A stretch of DNA of 64,000 nt from Waddliaceae bacterium (GCA_963783885.1 CAWAPJ010000008.1:32001-96000); one strand, 5' to 3'; positions 30,001-45,000 are shown, counted from the first letter of the stretch. Program-made: the numbers.

Positions 30001-33000
30001 GATGTTTGTTTCGGCGACTTGCTGCGCTTTTTTGTGGACAGCGCGGGAACGCTGGCGCGCCTCCTCTTCCAGCTCTTCATAACGCTTGAGGTCGACATCA
30101 AGGCCTGCATCTTTGGCGAGCAGCGTGATCTCTTCAAGGGGCATTCCATAGGTGTCTTTTAACTTGAAGGCATCGTCTCCGGTGATGTGGTTGCCGTGCT
30201 CCTGGGCCCTTTCGATTGTTTGATTCAAAAGGTTGCCGCCCCGTTTCAGGGTACGGAGGAAACTTTCCTCTTCCAGTGTCAGAATTTCGTCGATGCGGCT
30301 CTGGCCGGTTTTCAGTTCGGTAAAATGATCGCCCATCAGCGCTGCAAGGCGGGGAAGCATTTTTGCGAGAAATGGATCTTTGAGCCCAAGCTGCCTTCCA
30401 TAGCGGACCGCCCGCCTGAGAACTTTTCTCAAGACATATCCCCGGTCGACATTGCTTGGCTGCACCCCGTCGGCGATGGCAAAAGCGAGGCACCGGAGGT
30501 GGTCGGCAATAACGCGGAAGGCTGCCGATGTATGATGGTCGCCGGGATCGTATTTGATTCCGGAAAGGTTTTCGACTTCGGCGATCAGGCTTAGAAGAAC
30601 ATCGGTTTCGAAAATGCTGTCGACATCATACATGAGGGTAAGAAGCCTTTCCAGACCCGCTCCCGTGTCGACTGAAGGTTTGGGAAGAGCGGCTATTTCG
30701 CCGTTTGGCATTTGGTTGTATTGCATGAAGACCAAGTTCCAGAATTCCAGGAATCTGGGGCCTTCCGGGTCTTCTGCAAGCGTGACGGCATCGCTGTAGG
30801 CCGGTCCGCGGTCATAGTAGAGCTCCGAACAGGGGCCGCAGGGGCCCGTATCTCCCATGGACCAGTAATTTTCCGACTCCCCGAAGCGGACGATTCTTTC
30901 GTCGGGAAGGTATTTCGTCCAAATCTCAAAAGCTTCGTCGTCGTCCAGATAGACGCTTGCCCACAGGTGTTTGGGGTCGAACCCGAAAATTTCGGTGGAG
31001 ACTTCCCAGGCGAATTTGACCGCCTCTTCCTTAAAGTAGTCGCCGAAGGAGAAATTGCCTAGCATTTCGAAGAATGTCAGGTGCCGCGTCGTATGGCCGA
31101 CATTTTCCAGGTCGTTGTGCTTTCCTCCTACACGGATGCATTTTTGGCTGGAGGCAGCGCGGTTGTAATCCCTTTTCGATTGTCCGAGAAAAACGTCTTT
31201 GAATTGATTCATACCCGCGTTGGTGAAAAGGAGGGTCGGATCGTCATGGGGCACGACGGGGGAGGAAGGGACGATAGAATGCCCTTGATCTTTAAAGTAC
31301 TTCAAAAATTTGCTGCGAATCTCGCCGGAATCCATAATTTCTTAAAATCATAGTCGATCGCGACATTAAAATGAACTTTAATTCTCAAATTTGTATAAAG
31401 GGAATTTGATTTGGAGGCGGCATGAGAAGTTTTTTTCTTTTTCTGGCAGCAATTTTATTTACCTCTGGACTTTTTGCAGAGGACAAGGAAAGGTGGGTAG
31501 CCTACTATTCCGATAAAGCTCCTATCGAGGCTTTTGATCCGTATTCTCTTATTGTTTTGGATTCCGATGACCACCCCACCCTTGAAGCTTTGAAGGAAGG
31601 AGGCAAGACTCTATTGGGATATCTCAGTTTAGGGGAGGTTGAAAATAATCGGTGGTGGTATCCCGATGTCAAAAATGAAGGGATTTTACTTCATGAGAAC
31701 AAACTTTGGCCTGGATCTTTTTTTGTCGACCTTCGCGATCCCAGATGGGCCAAAAGAGTGATTGAGGATTTGATCCCTTGTCTGCTTCATATGGGATTCG
31801 ACGGGTTGTTTTTAGATACCCTTGACAATGCCGAGGAGCTAGAACATGAAAATCTTGCCGCGTATCAGGGGATGACTCAGGCAGCGGCTCACCTTGTTAT
31901 GGCAATCAAAATGCACTATCCCCACATTCCCGTCATGGTGAACAGGGCCTATTTTCTTCTTCCCGAGACTGTGGGCATCATCGATATGGAGCTGGGCGAG
32001 GATGTGATGACGACCTACGATTTTAAGAAGAAAAAATACCTCAAACAGCCCAAAGATATTTACGAAGAGCAGGTAAAGCTGCTTAAGGAAGCTAAGAAGG
32101 GTAATCCTAAACTAAAAGTTTACACTTTGGATTATTGGTATCCCGATAAGGCCGAATATATTAAGAAAATTTACCAGACAGAGAGGGAGAACGGATTTAT
32201 CCCTTATGTCGGAACAATCGAACTGGATAAAATTGTCCCGGAGCCGAAATGAACAAAAATTTTATCTTTATCTGCCTCATGCTTCCTTTTGCCTTGTTTG
32301 GGCAAAACGTTCCCCGAAAGATTATCGCGCTCTACGATAGCAATATTCATAGGGACCTTTATTTTACTAAAACGCACCAGCTTGCCGAAATGCCTCTGAA
32401 TCATTTGGGTTATATTTTTGAATATCATGATATTCGAAGAGAGCTTCCCGACTTAGGAGATCGCGAAGATGTTGTTGGGGTCATTGCCTGGTTTGATGAA
32501 GAGACGCAATTATCTTTGGATGTTGCGAAAAAATTATTTGACTGGTCTTTACGTAGTCTGGATTTGGGAAAAAAGTTTCTTCTAATGGGGCAGCCGATTT
32601 TTATTCCCGAAAACACGGGCCTTCCTCTAGAAAAAATGAACACATTTTGGGAAAAGCTAGGTCTTAGGATAACAGGCGATTGGGTCGCAAAAACTTATTC
32701 AGTGAAACTTGTAGAGCCCCATCCTTACATGACCGGCTTCGAACGATCGTACAAAGAGCCTTACGACACTTATGTTGAAGTGCTTAAAACTTCTGACAAG
32801 ACGACAAGCTACCTCAGCGCCATTGCCGAGGGGCGCGAGTATCCCAAATCGGTTTTGATGGCGATAGCTCCAAATGGAGGGTATGTAGCCAATGATTATG
32901 CGGTTTTTTTTCTGTTTGAGGAGGGGAAAAGCACCCGGAAGTGGTATATTAATCCCTTTTTGTTTTTTCAAAAGGTGTTTGACCGAAATAATATTCCCAA

Positions 33001-42000: not shown

Positions 42001-45000
42001 GAAGTGACGGCATCCGATTGGCTTAGCGACCAGCGGACAATGGATTTGTCTGTGGAACAGATTTTTAATATTCGGGACCTTAAGGATTTTTGGATTGATA
42101 CTTTTTCCGGTTTTTCCAGGGCCTGCTACTCCTCTTGCGAAAAAATCGTCACACTTTTCGAAGGGAATAAGGAATTTCAAGTTCTTGACGGCGCTGACCC
42201 CGATAAGATTCTGATCATACCCAACGGAATTGATTTCGAACACTTTTCAAGTTTGCCAAGAGATGATTCCCATCCTCCAACCATCGCCCTTATCGGCAGA
42301 ATCGTGCCGATAAAAGATATTAAAAGCTTTATTTATGCCGTTAAAATCCTCAAAGAGAGAATCCCTAACATAAGAGCGTGGGCTCTCGGAAACGTCGATG
42401 AGGATCCTGAATATTTTGAAGAGTGCCTGGCCCTTGTCAATCGCAACAATTTGACTGAGACGATCTCATTTACCGGAAAGGTAAATGTCGAAGACTACCT
42501 GCCCCATATCGATCTTCTTGTCTTAACCAGCATCAGCGAAGGACAGCCCCTCTCGATTTTGGAGGGAGGGGCGGCCGGTATCCCATGCGTGACGACCGAT
42601 GTCGGCTCATGCAGCGAAATTATCTATGGAAGAAGCGATGAAGATCCCGATTTGGGAATAGGGGGAGCTTCATGCCCACTGTCTAATCCTGAGTCTGTTT
42701 CCGATGAGTGTTATCATCTTTTAACCGATCGGAAGCTTTATAATAAATGCAGCGCGGCCATTCGAAAAAGGGTTGAAACTTATTACAATCAAAAGGATCA
42801 GACAATAGCTTATCGAAAACTTTATGGAGAATTGATTTCAAGTAAGGAAAAATAATGGCGGGAATTGGATTTGTATTAAGAAAATTGACTAAAAGGGGAG
42901 ACCTCTCAGGGGCGATTGAAGCTTATTTTCACGCGATCTTTGCCTCGACGGGCCCCTGGATTTTGACTATACTGACTGTCTGGGCTTTCTTTTTTGTTGG
43001 AGATTATTGGCGGCTCTCCGAATATGTCGAAGAATTTAGGATCATCATTCTCTATAACTTTTCATTTTCCCTTGTATTCACCGCTCCGCTGACGATGATT
43101 GCGACAAGATATCTCGCCGACTGTTTTTTCCGGATGGATGTGTCCAAAGTCTCGGGACTTCTGCTCGGCACCTTGTCTGTTCAGCTGACCGCCTCTTTCC
43201 CGGTCGCCGCCTATTTTTACTTTGGCGTGGTTTCCATGAGCCATGCGATGGCTTTTTTATCCGTCATCAATTTTTTGCTCATTTCAGGCATATGGCTCAC
43301 GATGGTTTTTATCTCTTCGCTGAAATATTATTCTGCGATCACTTTTTCTTTCTTGACCGGTATGGCCCTTGCCATCTTTTTAGCCTATGTACTTTCCGGA
43401 ATTGTCGGCCCTGAGGGTATGATTCTCGGTTTTGATATCGGGATAGCTTTTATCTTAAGCTCCTTCATATCGGTTATCCTGGCCGAATATCCCCACAATG
43501 TGGAAAACCCCTTTCTTTTCCTCAAATACGGAAAAAAATATTGGCAGGTGGCCTTATCGGGAACCTGTTACAATTTAGGTATCTGGGTCGATAAATGGAT
43601 TATGTGGTTCTCTCCGGAAAGGCGGCAGCTTCCAAACGGCATGATTGTCTATCCCGAATATGATGTGGCCATGTTCGTCGCTTATCTCACGATCATTCCG
43701 GCAATGGCCCTATTTTTGATACAGCAGGAAACCTCGTTTTTTGAAAGGTATGTCGCTTTTTATCGCGGCATACTCGGGCATGACTCTTTTCGAAAAATTC
43801 AGAAAAACCACAGAAGCATGGTGGACAACATCATGGAAAATGGGAGAAACATCATTCTCCTTCAATCAATCATTTGCGTTGCCTGCCTCTTTCTAGCACC
43901 GTCTATTATGGGACTTTTGTATATGAATCTCGTTCAGATTTCTGTCTTTCGCTTCGGCGTATTGGGCGCGTCCTTTCAAATCATCAGTCTTTTTCTCATG
44001 ATCCTCCTCTCATATTTCGATGATCGTAAGGATGTTGTGATTATAGCTTTGGTCTTTGTTACAAGCAACGCGCTCTTTACATGGATAGGGATGCATCTGG
44101 GCTTCGCTTTTTACGGATATGGCTATTTTCTTTCGACAATTGTGACTTTTATCGTTTCTGCCGTATTAGCCGAAAGATATATCAGTCAATTAGTCTACCA
44201 TACATTTGTGACGCGAAACCTTGCTGAAATTGGATAAATTAAGTTAACATAATGCCAAAGCTCGGCTTTGTACAATTTTTGAACGAAGATGCTAAGGGAG
44301 AGGTAAAATCCAGCGTAATGAATTTCGAGGGATGGGTATTTTTACCCTTCCCGAGAAATTCATCTAGCTGGATAAAGCCTCTCTTAGCAGATGAGTTCAA
44401 AAATTGTACAAAGTCGAGCAAAGGAGCCCCGAGATGGAAGTTGAAACAAAATCAAAAGAAGAGAGTCCCATGAAGGAAGATTGGCAGCCGGAAAAACTTG
44501 ATGATACCACAAAAGAAGTTCTCAGAAAAATTGCCGGGACAATACGTCAATTCGCCATGGACGCGACCCAAAAGGCCGATTCGGGACATCCCGGACTTCC
44601 TATGGGGTGCGCGGAAATTGGAGCCTATTTATGGGGCCTCGGCTTGCGCTATAATCCTAAAAATCCCGACTGGGTCAATCGCGACCGCTTTTTTCTTTCC
44701 GCGGGGCATGGATGCCTGCTTCCCTATACCTGTCTGCACCTCAGCGGATACGACCTTTCTCTAGAAGAGATTAAACGTTTTCGCCAACTCCATTCCAAAA
44801 CTCCCGGCCATCCGGAAAAATTGGACACTCCGGGAATCGAAACAACGACAGGACCTCTCGGACAGGGTCTGGGCAACGCCGCAGGAGCCGCCCTCGGAAT
44901 GAAGCTTCTTTCCGAGAAATTCAACACCGAAAAGCATCAGATCATCGACAACAAAGTAATCACGCTCGCCGGCGACGGCTGCATTATGGAGGGCGTCACA

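Follow-up and report, generated by a model that had tools for sequence, protein, structure and literature searches.

A PelC-less pel exopolysaccharide operon in a chlamydia, with Pel control that is probably not by c-di-GMP

How is a pel exopolysaccharide operon controlled in a bacterium whose only GGDEF-like stretch lies inside PelD itself? This question is raised by the genome of a Waddliaceae bacterium (G000, 88.9% complete; C8, C11 and similar names denote its contigs). The window is a 64,000-nt stretch of this genome, and coordinates are window positions unless a contig is named. The locus occupies 31422-44237, where the ORFs were located exactly, and encodes the hydrolase and deacetylase parts of PelA, PelB, PelD, a PelE-like protein, PelF and PelG. 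A genome-wide survey's note had read it as a pel operon, and we agree. Its features are as follows.

31422-32252, + strand: pelA-H, secreted GH114 glycoside hydrolase, 276 aa (PF03537, 74.8 bits)
32249-34513, + strand: pelA-DA, secreted deacetylase part of PelA, 754 aa, without a Pfam match
34514-34994, no strand: AT-rich spacer, without a + strand ORF of at least 40 aa and without pelC
34940-34967: promoter-like site in the spacer, before pelB
34995-38903, + strand: pelB, 1302 aa, predicted N-terminal membrane anchor, TPR scaffold (TPR families) and C-terminal outer-membrane beta-barrel
38911-40282, + strand: pelD, whole gene; four transmembrane (TM) helices (DUF4118-like), coiled coil, GAF and a degenerate GGDEF-like domain
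38779-39354, + strand: N-terminal pelD ORF as read, 191 aa; translation probably begins at ATG 38911, 8 nt past the pelB stop
39320-40282, + strand: C-terminal pelD ORF as read, 320 aa (GAF_3, 33.1 bits)
40275-41369, + strand: pelE-like, 364 aa, N-terminal membrane helices and a TPR region (TPR_19, 30.6 bits)
41362-42855, + strand: pelF, cytoplasmic GT4 glycosyltransferase and predicted polymerase, 497 aa
42855-44237, + strand: pelG, inner-membrane exporter-like protein, 460 aa
44256-44270: terminator-like hairpin after pelG

The identification rests on PelF and PelG, both far over their cut-offs. PelF matches the NF038011 equivalog along its whole length (positions 1-489 of 489) at 437.9 bits against a cut-off of 100, and also matches DUF3492 (246 bits) and Glyco_trans_1_4. 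PelG matches PF16933 over positions 1-452 of 452 at 417 bits against a cut-off of 29 (E = 1.3e-124). The PelE-like protein has a hydrophobic N-terminus in addition to its TPR_19 match, and its gene keeps its place between pelD and pelF in the loci of 28 relatives. Gene order is constant across the 29 relatives' loci that were fetched, and tkt adjoins pelG downstream in G000 and its family. The survey's note had counted PelG in 20 of 251 chlamydial genomes; on a larger sample of the phylum we count 30 of 401, G000 included. We found no earlier description of pel in chlamydiae in the part of the literature that was searched, and no RNA run containing the stretch was found.

PelB gave only generic TPR matches by phmmer. 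An AlphaFold2 model of residues 985-1302 (pLDDT 88.2) was all-beta, with the PelBC transporter chain 9h80_M as its best Foldseek match (E = 3.6e-11, TM 0.76); the C-terminus thereby adopts the fold of the solved PelB porin. PelC, which the survey's note had also failed to recognize, is missing more widely. A PelC profile (alignment A4), validated on solved PelC 9h80_C (E = 1.2e-18), found nothing in G000 even at E ≤ 10. Across 29 chlamydial relatives it returned no match better than E = 0.097, with two control genomes scoring 1.7e-81 and 5e-83, and PelC is absent from the nearest non-chlamydial loci as well. The interior of the spacer before pelB shows no homology with that of relative G379, a 1.6-kb spacer holding an uncharacterized 417-aa ORF. 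One report (PMC12141448) describes PelC as indispensable in P. aeruginosa. We assume that export here would proceed without a PelC ring.

PelA is encoded by two ORFs, which the survey's note had suspected might reflect an assembly indel; the split is instead native. The product of pelA-H matches the PelA hydrolase 5tcb_A in the PDB (E = 1.1e-17) as well as residues 8-246 of full-length PelA (9cgy_A). The product of pelA-DA matches 9cgy_A at E = 4.6e-55, residues 219-666 of its 754 aligning with 432-824 of the chain; its first ~218 and last ~90 residues are unassigned. All 22 chlamydial copies compared have D270, H341, H345 and H553. The two ORFs overlap by 4 nt (ATGA), each has a signal-peptide-like N-terminus of its own as read from its sequence, and pelA-H stands as an ORF of its own in the loci of 17 relatives. 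With a signal peptide on both products and the two genes apart in every relative, PelA is naturally two genes. Both predicted activities are present, in two ORFs, and the single-polypeptide form is absent.

For pelD the outcome differs. Its reading in two frames stems from one extra A in an A-run at 39325-39330. One letter at 39326 is missing from the contigs of all four public runs (4/4), each at least 99% alike; their depth is just 2-4x, and the window itself may derive from one of these runs. PelD is one ORF in 26 relatives' loci. We conclude that pelD is one gene and that its split reflects either an artefact of the assembly or a rare variant. An operon that is a decaying relic, with pelD broken and no polymer made, would fit the two frames in the window, and pel decay is known in the phylum: relative G234 has fragmented pelB and pelD, and G239 retains only pelG. 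We find this reading extremely doubtful for G000, given that the extra A is missing from all four sets of public contigs, that the catalytic-type residues are invariant and that dN/dS is low. Against G379, dN/dS was 0.10 and 0.11 for the two pelD halves, 0.14 for pelA-H, 0.09 for pelA-DA, 0.11 for pelB, 0.14 for pelE-like and 0.05 for pelG; the seven pel segments thus span 0.05-0.14, and tkt gave 0.07. These data indicate that the pel genes are under purifying selection.

The survey's note had reported no match to solved PelD, and by sequence alone we obtained only E = 1.2-2.4. A match does exist by fold: the top 8 Foldseek hits of the PelD model (pLDDT 88.9) were all P. aeruginosa PelD (4etx, 6.3e-11; 4dn0, 3.6e-10). 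Comparison with 40 non-chlamydial PelDs by hhalign gave a probability of 100 (E = 9e-122). GAF_3 is found in 27/27 and DUF4118 in 16/27 members of the chlamydial PelD alignment (A1). The architecture of TM segment, GAF and degenerate GGDEF domain is present in the window's PelD, where 40058-40258 gives a weak, sub-threshold GGDEF match (15.4-15.9 bits; E = 0.0106 at 15.9 bits).

The I-site is where this PelD departs from its counterparts. R-x-x-D occupies the I-site column in 36 of 40 non-chlamydial PelDs (alignment A3), and the RxxD of their profile aligns with the RQSD I-site of the diguanylate cyclase 3ign. The window's PelD reads S-H-L-D, retaining the aspartate. Among 17 I-site-less chlamydial PelDs the arginine is found in 0 and the aspartate in 1, counts drawn from related genomes that are not independent, such that the loss may represent one or two events. 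RxxD occurs in only three chlamydial PelDs (G324, G147 and G252), and 3/3 of these genomes carry GGDEF genes of 129-172 bits; of the 20 genomes whose full-length PelD has no RxxD, 2 have GGDEF over cut-off. The C-terminal domain averages 0.20 in pairwise identity among chlamydial PelDs and 0.30 among non-chlamydial ones; the TM and GAF parts are conserved to the same degree in both sets (0.49 and 0.43 versus 0.44 and 0.40). Four chlamydial PelDs (G180, G137, G105 and G371; 299-319 aa) consist of TM and GAF parts only, the C-terminal domain having been dropped. The model and alignments show that the PelD fold is retained in G000 and that the arginine of the I-site is gone.

We then considered the c-di-GMP parts elsewhere in the genome. 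GGDEF, EAL, HD_5 (HD-GYP) and PilZ each gave 0 matches over cut-off in G000, in searches that each matched in at least 7 of 14 control genomes. Across the phylum GGDEF genes are common (over cut-off in 141 of 401 genomes), which corrects the picture drawn by the survey's note. Its more specific statements, that GGDEF is lacking from this genome and from most pel-positive relatives, stand. Among the 30 PelG-positive genomes, GGDEF is over cut-off in 8 (G014, G105, G137, G147, G180, G252, G324 and G372), sub-threshold only in G120 and G371, and without a match at E ≤ 0.01 in 20; the weak G014 match of 28.7 bits was reproduced. The other four genomes of G000's family all carry pel and have at most one GGDEF match, of 28.7 bits. 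No GGDEF was found in two near-closed pel-positive relatives, G303 (1 contig) and G255 (3 contigs).

Could c-di-GMP still control Pel, with a cyclase in the unassembled 11% or of an unrecognized type and with PelD binding through other residues? The incomplete assembly, the retained aspartate and the presence of GGDEF genes in the phylum, including 8 pel-positive genomes, would allow it. We nevertheless judge it very unlikely, since EAL, HD_5 and PilZ are missing from G000 together with GGDEF, 5 of 5 family genomes lack a clear GGDEF enzyme, and the I-site arginine is gone from all 17 related PelDs in a domain that has drifted. Incompleteness is an unlikely excuse because the family lacks a clear GGDEF enzyme and G303 and G255 lack one too. 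For G000 alone, at this completeness, the absence of a cyclase falls short of proof. The survey's note had argued from that absence that Pel, if made, could not be subject to the usual c-di-GMP/PelD control, and this conclusion is now directly supported because the I-site arginine of PelD is replaced. Judged from sequence, Pel control here appears not to be by c-di-GMP.

The machinery might also be active with the degenerate or GAF domain of PelD sensing another small molecule, the obvious candidate being c-di-AMP. It is the only cyclic dinucleotide with a recognizable synthase (a DAC domain of 136.9 bits on C31), and the GAF domain, the part well conserved among chlamydial PelDs, could provide a site. 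A 7TM-HD protein, which we take to be PgpH-like in make-up, is encoded beside galE on C11. This proposal seems quite improbable to us, as the C-terminal domain has no conserved residue, every invariant column of A1 lying in the GAF part, and is the domain discarded in the four short PelDs.

Compared with P. aeruginosa pelABCDEFG, the chlamydial locus shares PelF, PelG, the PelD fold, a PelE-like protein, a PelB with TPR and porin folds, both PelA activities and the gene order, in a diderm envelope with an outer-membrane exporter. It differs in having no PelC, two secreted PelA proteins, an SxxD in place of the RxxD I-site, and no c-di-GMP toolkit. According to the available portions of three reports (PMC7112168, PMC7890745, PMC12345266), streptococci produce Pel using a PelD devoid of the GGDEF domain, have no diguanylate cyclase, and still need pelD to do so. 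The streptococcal class IV PelD clusters described there resemble the chlamydial locus in lacking diguanylate cyclases, in a PelD without a usable canonical I-site, and in separate genes for the PelA deacetylase and hydrolase. In those same portions, streptococci are monoderm and have no PelB, and class IV PelD has a degenerate SDR domain at its N-terminus and no GGDEF domain; in G000, PelB with its porin is present, the GGDEF-like domain is kept in degenerate form, and PelD has no N-terminal extension. TM and GAF-only PelDs do occur in the four chlamydial relatives named above. We rejected assignment to the Gram-positive pelDEA(DA)FG cluster, which shares the separate deacetylase gene, on account of the PelB with porin.

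The nearest PelF relatives are PelC-less loci of Alphaproteobacteria and 'Rickettsiales' MAGs (L077, L096, L123, L095 and others), in a 52-row clade with 98% local support in a quick FastTree that includes 12 rows of unusual amino-acid composition. In these loci too, GH114 and the deacetylase are encoded by separate genes, PelB is long (~1450-1500 aa) and no PelC-like ORF precedes pelD, but their PelDs retain RxxD and no histidine kinase directly follows pelG.

We consider it likely that the locus is a native, intact, selectively maintained, PelC-less exopolysaccharide system of the Pel type, belonging to an environmental chlamydia that depends on a host, with control not by c-di-GMP. Host dependence is indicated by five TLC nucleotide transporters in G000, compared with 0 in the 14 control genomes. 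The system is real and probably working, and we infer that Pel is made. By analogy with P. aeruginosa, PelF would polymerize a UDP-GalNAc-derived chain at an inner-membrane complex of PelD, PelE and PelG, for which GalE (405.8 bits, on C11) could supply substrate. In the periplasm the separate PelA-DA deacetylase and PelA-H hydrolase would modify the chain, and the TPR arm and beta-barrel of PelB would export it. PelD may now serve as a structural or otherwise-regulated subunit. The product of a P. aeruginosa-type system would be a partially deacetylated alpha-1,4 GalNAc polymer, for which the enzymes and GalE are seen here. The locus could instead make a related but different polymer, or serve a role other than biofilm matrix, such as an extracellular-stage coat or an inclusion matrix. 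Host dependence, the missing PelC and the split PelA lend this some appeal; PelF and PelG scoring far over their equivalog and family cut-offs, with both predicted PelA activities present and their residues conserved, leave it only a small chance. It is a question of role and is compatible with the Pel-type system that we favor.

If c-di-GMP does not control this Pel-type system, the flanks of the relatives' loci offer a candidate, in a linkage that is new in this analysis. A PAS/GAF histidine kinase, a stand-alone receiver or both lie beside pel in 17 of 29 relatives, among them all 14 I-site-less loci outside G000's family, although this linkage too may reflect one or two events. In nine loci with extended flanks, picked on the strength of a kinase already observed in them, pelG is followed directly by the kinase and then by a receiver of 131-140 aa (9/9); the distance from pelG to the kinase, measured in eight, ranges from a 28-nt overlap to a 64-nt gap. 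Among the 80 loci listed, only chlamydial ones have a kinase right after pelG, and two non-chlamydial ones have a receiver-like ORF there.

The pair is not beside pel in G000 and its family. The best G000 match of all nine pel-linked kinases is contig position C11:40391-42124, and the adjoining receiver is 49-57% identical to the eight pel-linked receivers of the I-site-less set. There are paralogous receivers on C12 and C2, and three of those eight match C12 slightly better than C11. These matches suggest that G000 likely keeps an ortholog of the kinase pair on C11, and hint that a PAS/GAF kinase with a stand-alone receiver may supply Pel control.

We tentatively propose, as a possibility rather than the expected outcome, that in I-site-less chlamydiae a dedicated phosphorelay has taken over from c-di-GMP in controlling the Pel synthase post-translationally. 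A cytoplasmic PAS/GAF kinase would phosphorylate the stand-alone receiver, which would in turn act on the synthase, most plausibly on the ligand-less GGDEF-like or GAF part of PelD, with the pair co-transcribed with pelG in most lineages and relocated to C11 near galE in G000's family. In that case, a sensed cue would lead host-dependent chlamydiae to turn on a cationic adhesive polymer, perhaps in the extracellular stage.

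Few biofilm polymers are as widespread as Pel, and in the textbook model it is activated when c-di-GMP binds to PelD. Eight closely packed ORFs on the + strand, at window positions 31422-44237, make up the pel locus:

31422-32252, + strand: GH114 hydrolase part of PelA, 276 aa (GH114, 74.8 bits)
32249-34513, + strand: deacetylase part of PelA, 754 aa (no Pfam match; solved PelA 9cgy_A)
34995-38903, + strand: PelB, 1302 aa (TPR families)
38779-39354, + strand: N-terminal ORF of PelD, 191 aa (first of the two frames of pelD)
39320-40282, + strand: C-terminal ORF of PelD, 320 aa (GAF_3, 33.1 bits)
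40275-41369, + strand: PelE-like protein, 364 aa (TPR_19)
41362-42855, + strand: PelF, 497 aa (NF038011, 437.9 bits against a cut-off of 100)
42855-44237, + strand: PelG, 460 aa (PF16933, 417 bits, E = 1.3e-124)

The genome-wide survey's note had placed the operon at these same window coordinates, and family scans returned its figures for GH114, TPR, GAF_3, PelF and PelG. The locus is flanked by housekeeping genes: mfd and alaS, encoded on the opposite strand, lie upstream of it, and tkt and hemE follow it. Its G+C content (0.42-0.46) is the same as that of the remainder of the window. Promoter and terminator scans at pel gave matches to consensus only. No Rfam family reached its gathering score anywhere in the 64-kb window, and therefore no riboswitch was seen ahead of pel.

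Several other features of the window were recorded. Genes for heme synthesis (hemE, coproporphyrinogen oxidase, a protoporphyrinogen-oxidase-like amine oxidase, hemD and hemC) lie around the region at 46486-51456 and 57958-59192. Directly upstream of mfd, at 23917-25344, are a DDE transposase (DDE_Tnp_1_5 and DDE_Tnp_1, 314 aa, minus strand) and an ORF of the PD-(D/E)XK nuclease family. The gene for glutamine-dependent NAD synthetase (CN_hydrolase and NAD_synthase, 13668-15299) is divided into two same-frame ORFs by an in-frame TAA at 14670-14672, which may be a genuine nonsense codon or a further assembly error. Two leucine-rich-repeat proteins are encoded at 21768-22577 and 60910-61530. Large minus-strand ORFs of 576, 593 and 1137 aa (8721-12233 and 15249-18659) had no Pfam match at E <= 1e-5.

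Both PelA and PelD occupy two ORFs, and the survey's note had raised the doubt that these splits were assembly indels. The 276-aa protein matches the solved hydrolase domain of PelA (5tcb_A, E = 1.1e-17) and also full-length PelA (9cgy_A, residues 8-246). The 754-aa protein matches 9cgy_A at E = 4.6e-55, and because its residues 219-666 align to chain residues 432-824 we assign it as the deacetylase part. Each protein has its own signal-peptide-like N-terminal stretch, the two genes overlap by ATGA, and hydrolase and deacetylase are separate ORFs in the loci of all 29 pel-positive relatives. For PelA, these data indicate a natural split. Two relatives (G303 and G217) have the two genes in reverse order, and two others (G038 and G324) have a second copy of the deacetylase gene. 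All 22 deacetylase copies compared share D270, H341, H345 and H553.

For PelD, the two frames can be joined only within 39272-39354, a stretch that contains an A7 run and an A6 run, and PelD is a single ORF in the loci of 26 relatives, including G379 from the same genus. Four public runs from four studies, of which one is a soil and three are salt-marsh metagenomes, gave contigs at least 99% like the window, and in all four the A6 run is shorter by one letter, at 39326. These contigs are 2-4x deep, and one run may be the window's own source. With the shorter A run, the frame would open with the ATG at 38911 and end with the stop at 40282, by arithmetic 456 codons; the G379 ortholog is 456 aa long. 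These data indicate that pelD is not truly split.

The survey's note had also described the PelD-like protein as giving no match to solved PelD. This held for sequence searches but not for the fold. When solved structures were searched by sequence, a profile of chlamydial PelDs reached PelD only at an unusable E of 1.2-2.4, a profile of 40 non-chlamydial PelDs reached it only at 0.19, and a gammaproteobacterial PelD sequence found nothing. The 320-aa C-terminal ORF was modeled with AlphaFold2 (27-sequence alignment, pLDDT 88.9); the model shows a GAF domain and, after it, a GGDEF-like domain. The eight best Foldseek matches of this model are all crystal structures of PelD from P. aeruginosa, with 4etx at 6.3e-11 as the first and 4dn0 at 3.6e-10 as the last. 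Profile-profile alignment of chlamydial PelDs with the 40 PelDs, which come from proteobacterial and acidobacterial pel loci, gave a probability of 100 (E = 9e-122, 443 columns). The link to solved PelD is therefore made by the fold match and the profile-profile alignment. A protein homology search with the chlamydial alignment returned 11 proteins; the few with a source name were chlamydial, and no named PelD was among them.

We located the c-di-GMP-binding I-site by alignment. The non-chlamydial RxxD aligns onto the RQSD I-site upstream of GGEEF in the diguanylate cyclase 3ign, and L-S-H-L-D of the window protein aligns onto L-R-x-T-D of the non-chlamydial profile. Arginine and aspartate are both present in 36 of the 40 non-chlamydial PelDs, the exceptions being those of loci L114, L097, L128 and L106, and loss of the I-site is therefore not limited to chlamydiae. 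Caldimonas tepidiphila PelD is one of these four. Only 3 of 22 full-length chlamydial PelDs have RxxD (G324, G147 and G252), and the PelDs of four further relatives (G180, G137, G105 and G371) are just 299-319 aa long and lack the GGDEF-like domain. Mean identity in the C-terminal domain is 20% among 17 I-site-less PelDs versus 30% in the non-chlamydial set, while the TM and GAF parts are conserved at least equally (49% and 43% versus 44% and 40%).

PelD type is diverse across metagenomes. Among the best 149 representatives of 3331 relatives, 80 have RxxD and 9 lack the region; the other 60 have different residues there, mostly with proline in place of the arginine. The profile matched two stretches in about 20 PelD relatives (577-684 aa; P0030, P0031, P0033, P0038, P0042 and others), which have an extra region; nearly all of these keep RxxD.

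The claim that this genome has no GGDEF domain was confirmed: nothing exceeded the cut-off, and the sole weak match (15.9 bits) falls within PelD itself. EAL, HD_5 and PilZ had no matches either. The genome does encode a c-di-AMP synthase (DAC) domain (contig C31, 136.9 bits). GGDEF genes are not rare in the phylum, being over cut-off in 141 of 401 genomes, and the impression that chlamydiae simply lack them is wrong. As the survey's note had stated for most pel-positive relatives, 20 of the 30 PelG-positive genomes, this one included, have no GGDEF match at E <= 0.01, with a weak match only in 2 and matches over cut-off in 8. All four other members of the window's family carry pel and none has a clear GGDEF enzyme; one of them, G014, has a single 28.7-bit match. 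All three genomes with an RxxD PelD carry GGDEF genes (129-172 bits). A full-length PelD without RxxD occurs in 20 genomes, this one among them, and GGDEF is over cut-off in 2 of these (G014 and G372). Because these genomes are kin, this co-occurrence has to be counted as one or two events and should not be read as a statistic. With no c-di-GMP parts found and an I-site that reads SxxD, not RxxD, the proposal that Pel lies outside the usual c-di-GMP/PelD control is supported and can be sharpened: c-di-GMP input appears to be gone both on the side of the enzyme that makes the nucleotide and on that of the site that receives it.

What might act in its place is suggested by the genes next to pel in relatives. 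The ORF after pelG in five relatives is a PAS/GAF-HisKA-HATPase_c histidine kinase whose start lies anywhere from 28 nt within pelG to 64 nt past its end. A stand-alone receiver (131-140 aa, Response_reg 85-112 bits) follows the kinase in nine of nine loci that we extended, which were chosen because the kinase had already been seen there. The receiver comes directly after pelG in G039 and G284, kinase and receiver lie directly ahead of the GH114 gene in G177, G372 and G138, and the pair is upstream on the opposite strand in G371. A receiver-domain ORF lies directly ahead of pelD in the divergent locus of G074. Altogether, pel is linked to kinase, receiver or both in 17 of 29 relatives, including all 14 I-site-less loci outside the window's family. 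Among 80 pel loci compared, a kinase directly after pelG was found in chlamydial ones only, and a receiver-like ORF after pelG in two alphaproteobacterial ones. The G074 locus also encodes an 883-aa TPR protein and, between pelE and pelF, a 675-aa HEAT-repeat protein, and the I-site of its PelD reads G-N-L-D.

Within the window's family, tkt comes after pelG in this genome, G379 and G395; the neighborhood is rearranged in G014, and the G038 contig stops 400 nt past pelG. The best match in this genome for all nine pel-linked kinases is a 594-aa PAS-GAF kinase on another contig (C11:40391-42124). The 138-aa receiver beside it is 49-57% identical to eight pel-linked receivers of the I-site-less set; for three of these eight, a paralog on contig C12 scores slightly above it. 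This pair lies about 3 kb from galE. Within 6 kb, the C11 region (32000-47000) holds galE, a 714-aa 7TM-HD protein, a short-chain dehydrogenase, the stand-alone receiver and the PAS-GAF kinase. We take the make-up of the 7TM-HD protein (7TMR-HDED, 7TM-7TMR_HD and HD) to be that of the c-di-AMP phosphodiesterase PgpH. Complex predictions for the cytoplasmic part of PelD with the receiver scored 0.02 and 0.11 against a mark of 0.32, were run without controls and have no bearing either way on binding. Gene neighborhood makes the kinase and stand-alone receiver a plausible candidate replacement for the c-di-GMP switch.

The survey's observation that no PelC was recognized also stands. We built a PelC profile from seven lipoprotein genes directly ahead of pelD in non-chlamydial loci, and it matched solved PelC structures (9h80_C at 1.2e-18; also 5t11, 5t10 and 5t0z). 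The profile found nothing at E <= 10 in this genome and nothing better than E = 0.097 in 29 pel-positive chlamydial genomes, and it matched two control genomes at 1.7e-81 and 5e-83. One gammaproteobacterial MAG locus (L152) has paired PelC paralogs ahead of pelD (1.7e-81 and 5.1e-53). There is no + strand ORF of at least 40 aa between the deacetylase gene and pelB, and the spacer at 34514-34994 holds no pelC remnant and no homology with the larger G379 spacer. G379 has a 417-aa ORF without a Pfam match where the window has an unrelated 480-bp spacer; in that five-contig assembly, pelB and pelF are each in two frames.

PelB could not be identified by phmmer, which matched only generic and designed TPR proteins. 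A model of its last 318 residues is all-beta (pLDDT 88.2), and among solved structures it most resembles the PelB chain in the PelBC transporter (9h80_M, E = 3.6e-11, TM 0.76), followed by BcsC and PgaA. A quick FastTree of PelF placed alphaproteobacterial and 'Rickettsiales' MAG loci as the nearest non-chlamydial relatives. As in the locus here, GH114 and deacetylase are encoded separately in these, PelB is long and a PelC-like ORF is absent. Therefore, the PelC-less form appears to be a wider variant that is not special to this genome.

Compared with G379, dN/dS values are 0.14 (GH114), 0.09 (deacetylase), 0.11 (C-part of PelB), 0.10 and 0.11 (the PelD parts), 0.14 (PelE) and 0.05 (PelG), with 0.07 for the neighboring tkt. 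Among sequencing runs, no RNA run was found to contain this stretch. The genome encodes GalE (405.8 bits), so a predicted UDP-hexose 4-epimerase is at hand. Decay of pel occurs in other members of the phylum. The one-contig genome G234 has fragmented pelB and pelD with whole pelF and pelG, and G239 has pelG alone, beside alaS, mfd and ispF, with no further pel gene within 13 kb upstream.

By homology, we liken the working of this system to that of P. aeruginosa pelABCDEFG, from which it differs in lacking PelC and the PelD I-site and in dividing PelA between two genes. Streptococcal Pel would be the nearest functional precedent, by analogy. According to the available text of PMC7112168, PMC7890745 and PMC12345266, streptococci have no cyclases and a class IV PelD without a GGDEF domain, yet pelD is still needed and Pel production was demonstrated by experiment. 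Streptococcal clusters are monoderm and lack PelB, whereas PelB belongs to the set here. The review PMC7890745, in its available part, describes PelD as three-domain in all Gram-negatives studied and gives an account of searches with PelC as the bait; searches of that kind would overlook all PelC-less pel loci. Among the papers listed by the literature searches, none was found to report pel in chlamydiae, and the main texts of PMC7112168, PMC7112194 and PMC7890745 contain 'Chlamyd' 0 times. The one 'PelG' among the hits listed for a chlamydial paper abbreviates a granulocyte, not the protein.

The nearest PelD relatives have the source names 'Chlamydiae bacterium' and 'Waddliaceae bacterium', and the genome encodes five TLC nucleotide transporters, a family matched in 0 of 14 control genomes. 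For these reasons the organism is taken to be a host-dependent chlamydia, and such chlamydiae are not expected makers of biofilm matrix. Taken together, the pel system is real, conserved and PelC-less, and it is probably active. This diderm lineage as a whole has kept the complete export machinery under purifying selection while losing both the I-site and the c-di-GMP-making enzymes and dispensing with PelC. The linkage of pel to a kinase and stand-alone receiver offers a concrete, testable candidate for what replaced c-di-GMP, and the system may bear on the survival or attachment of environmental chlamydiae outside, or inside, their hosts.
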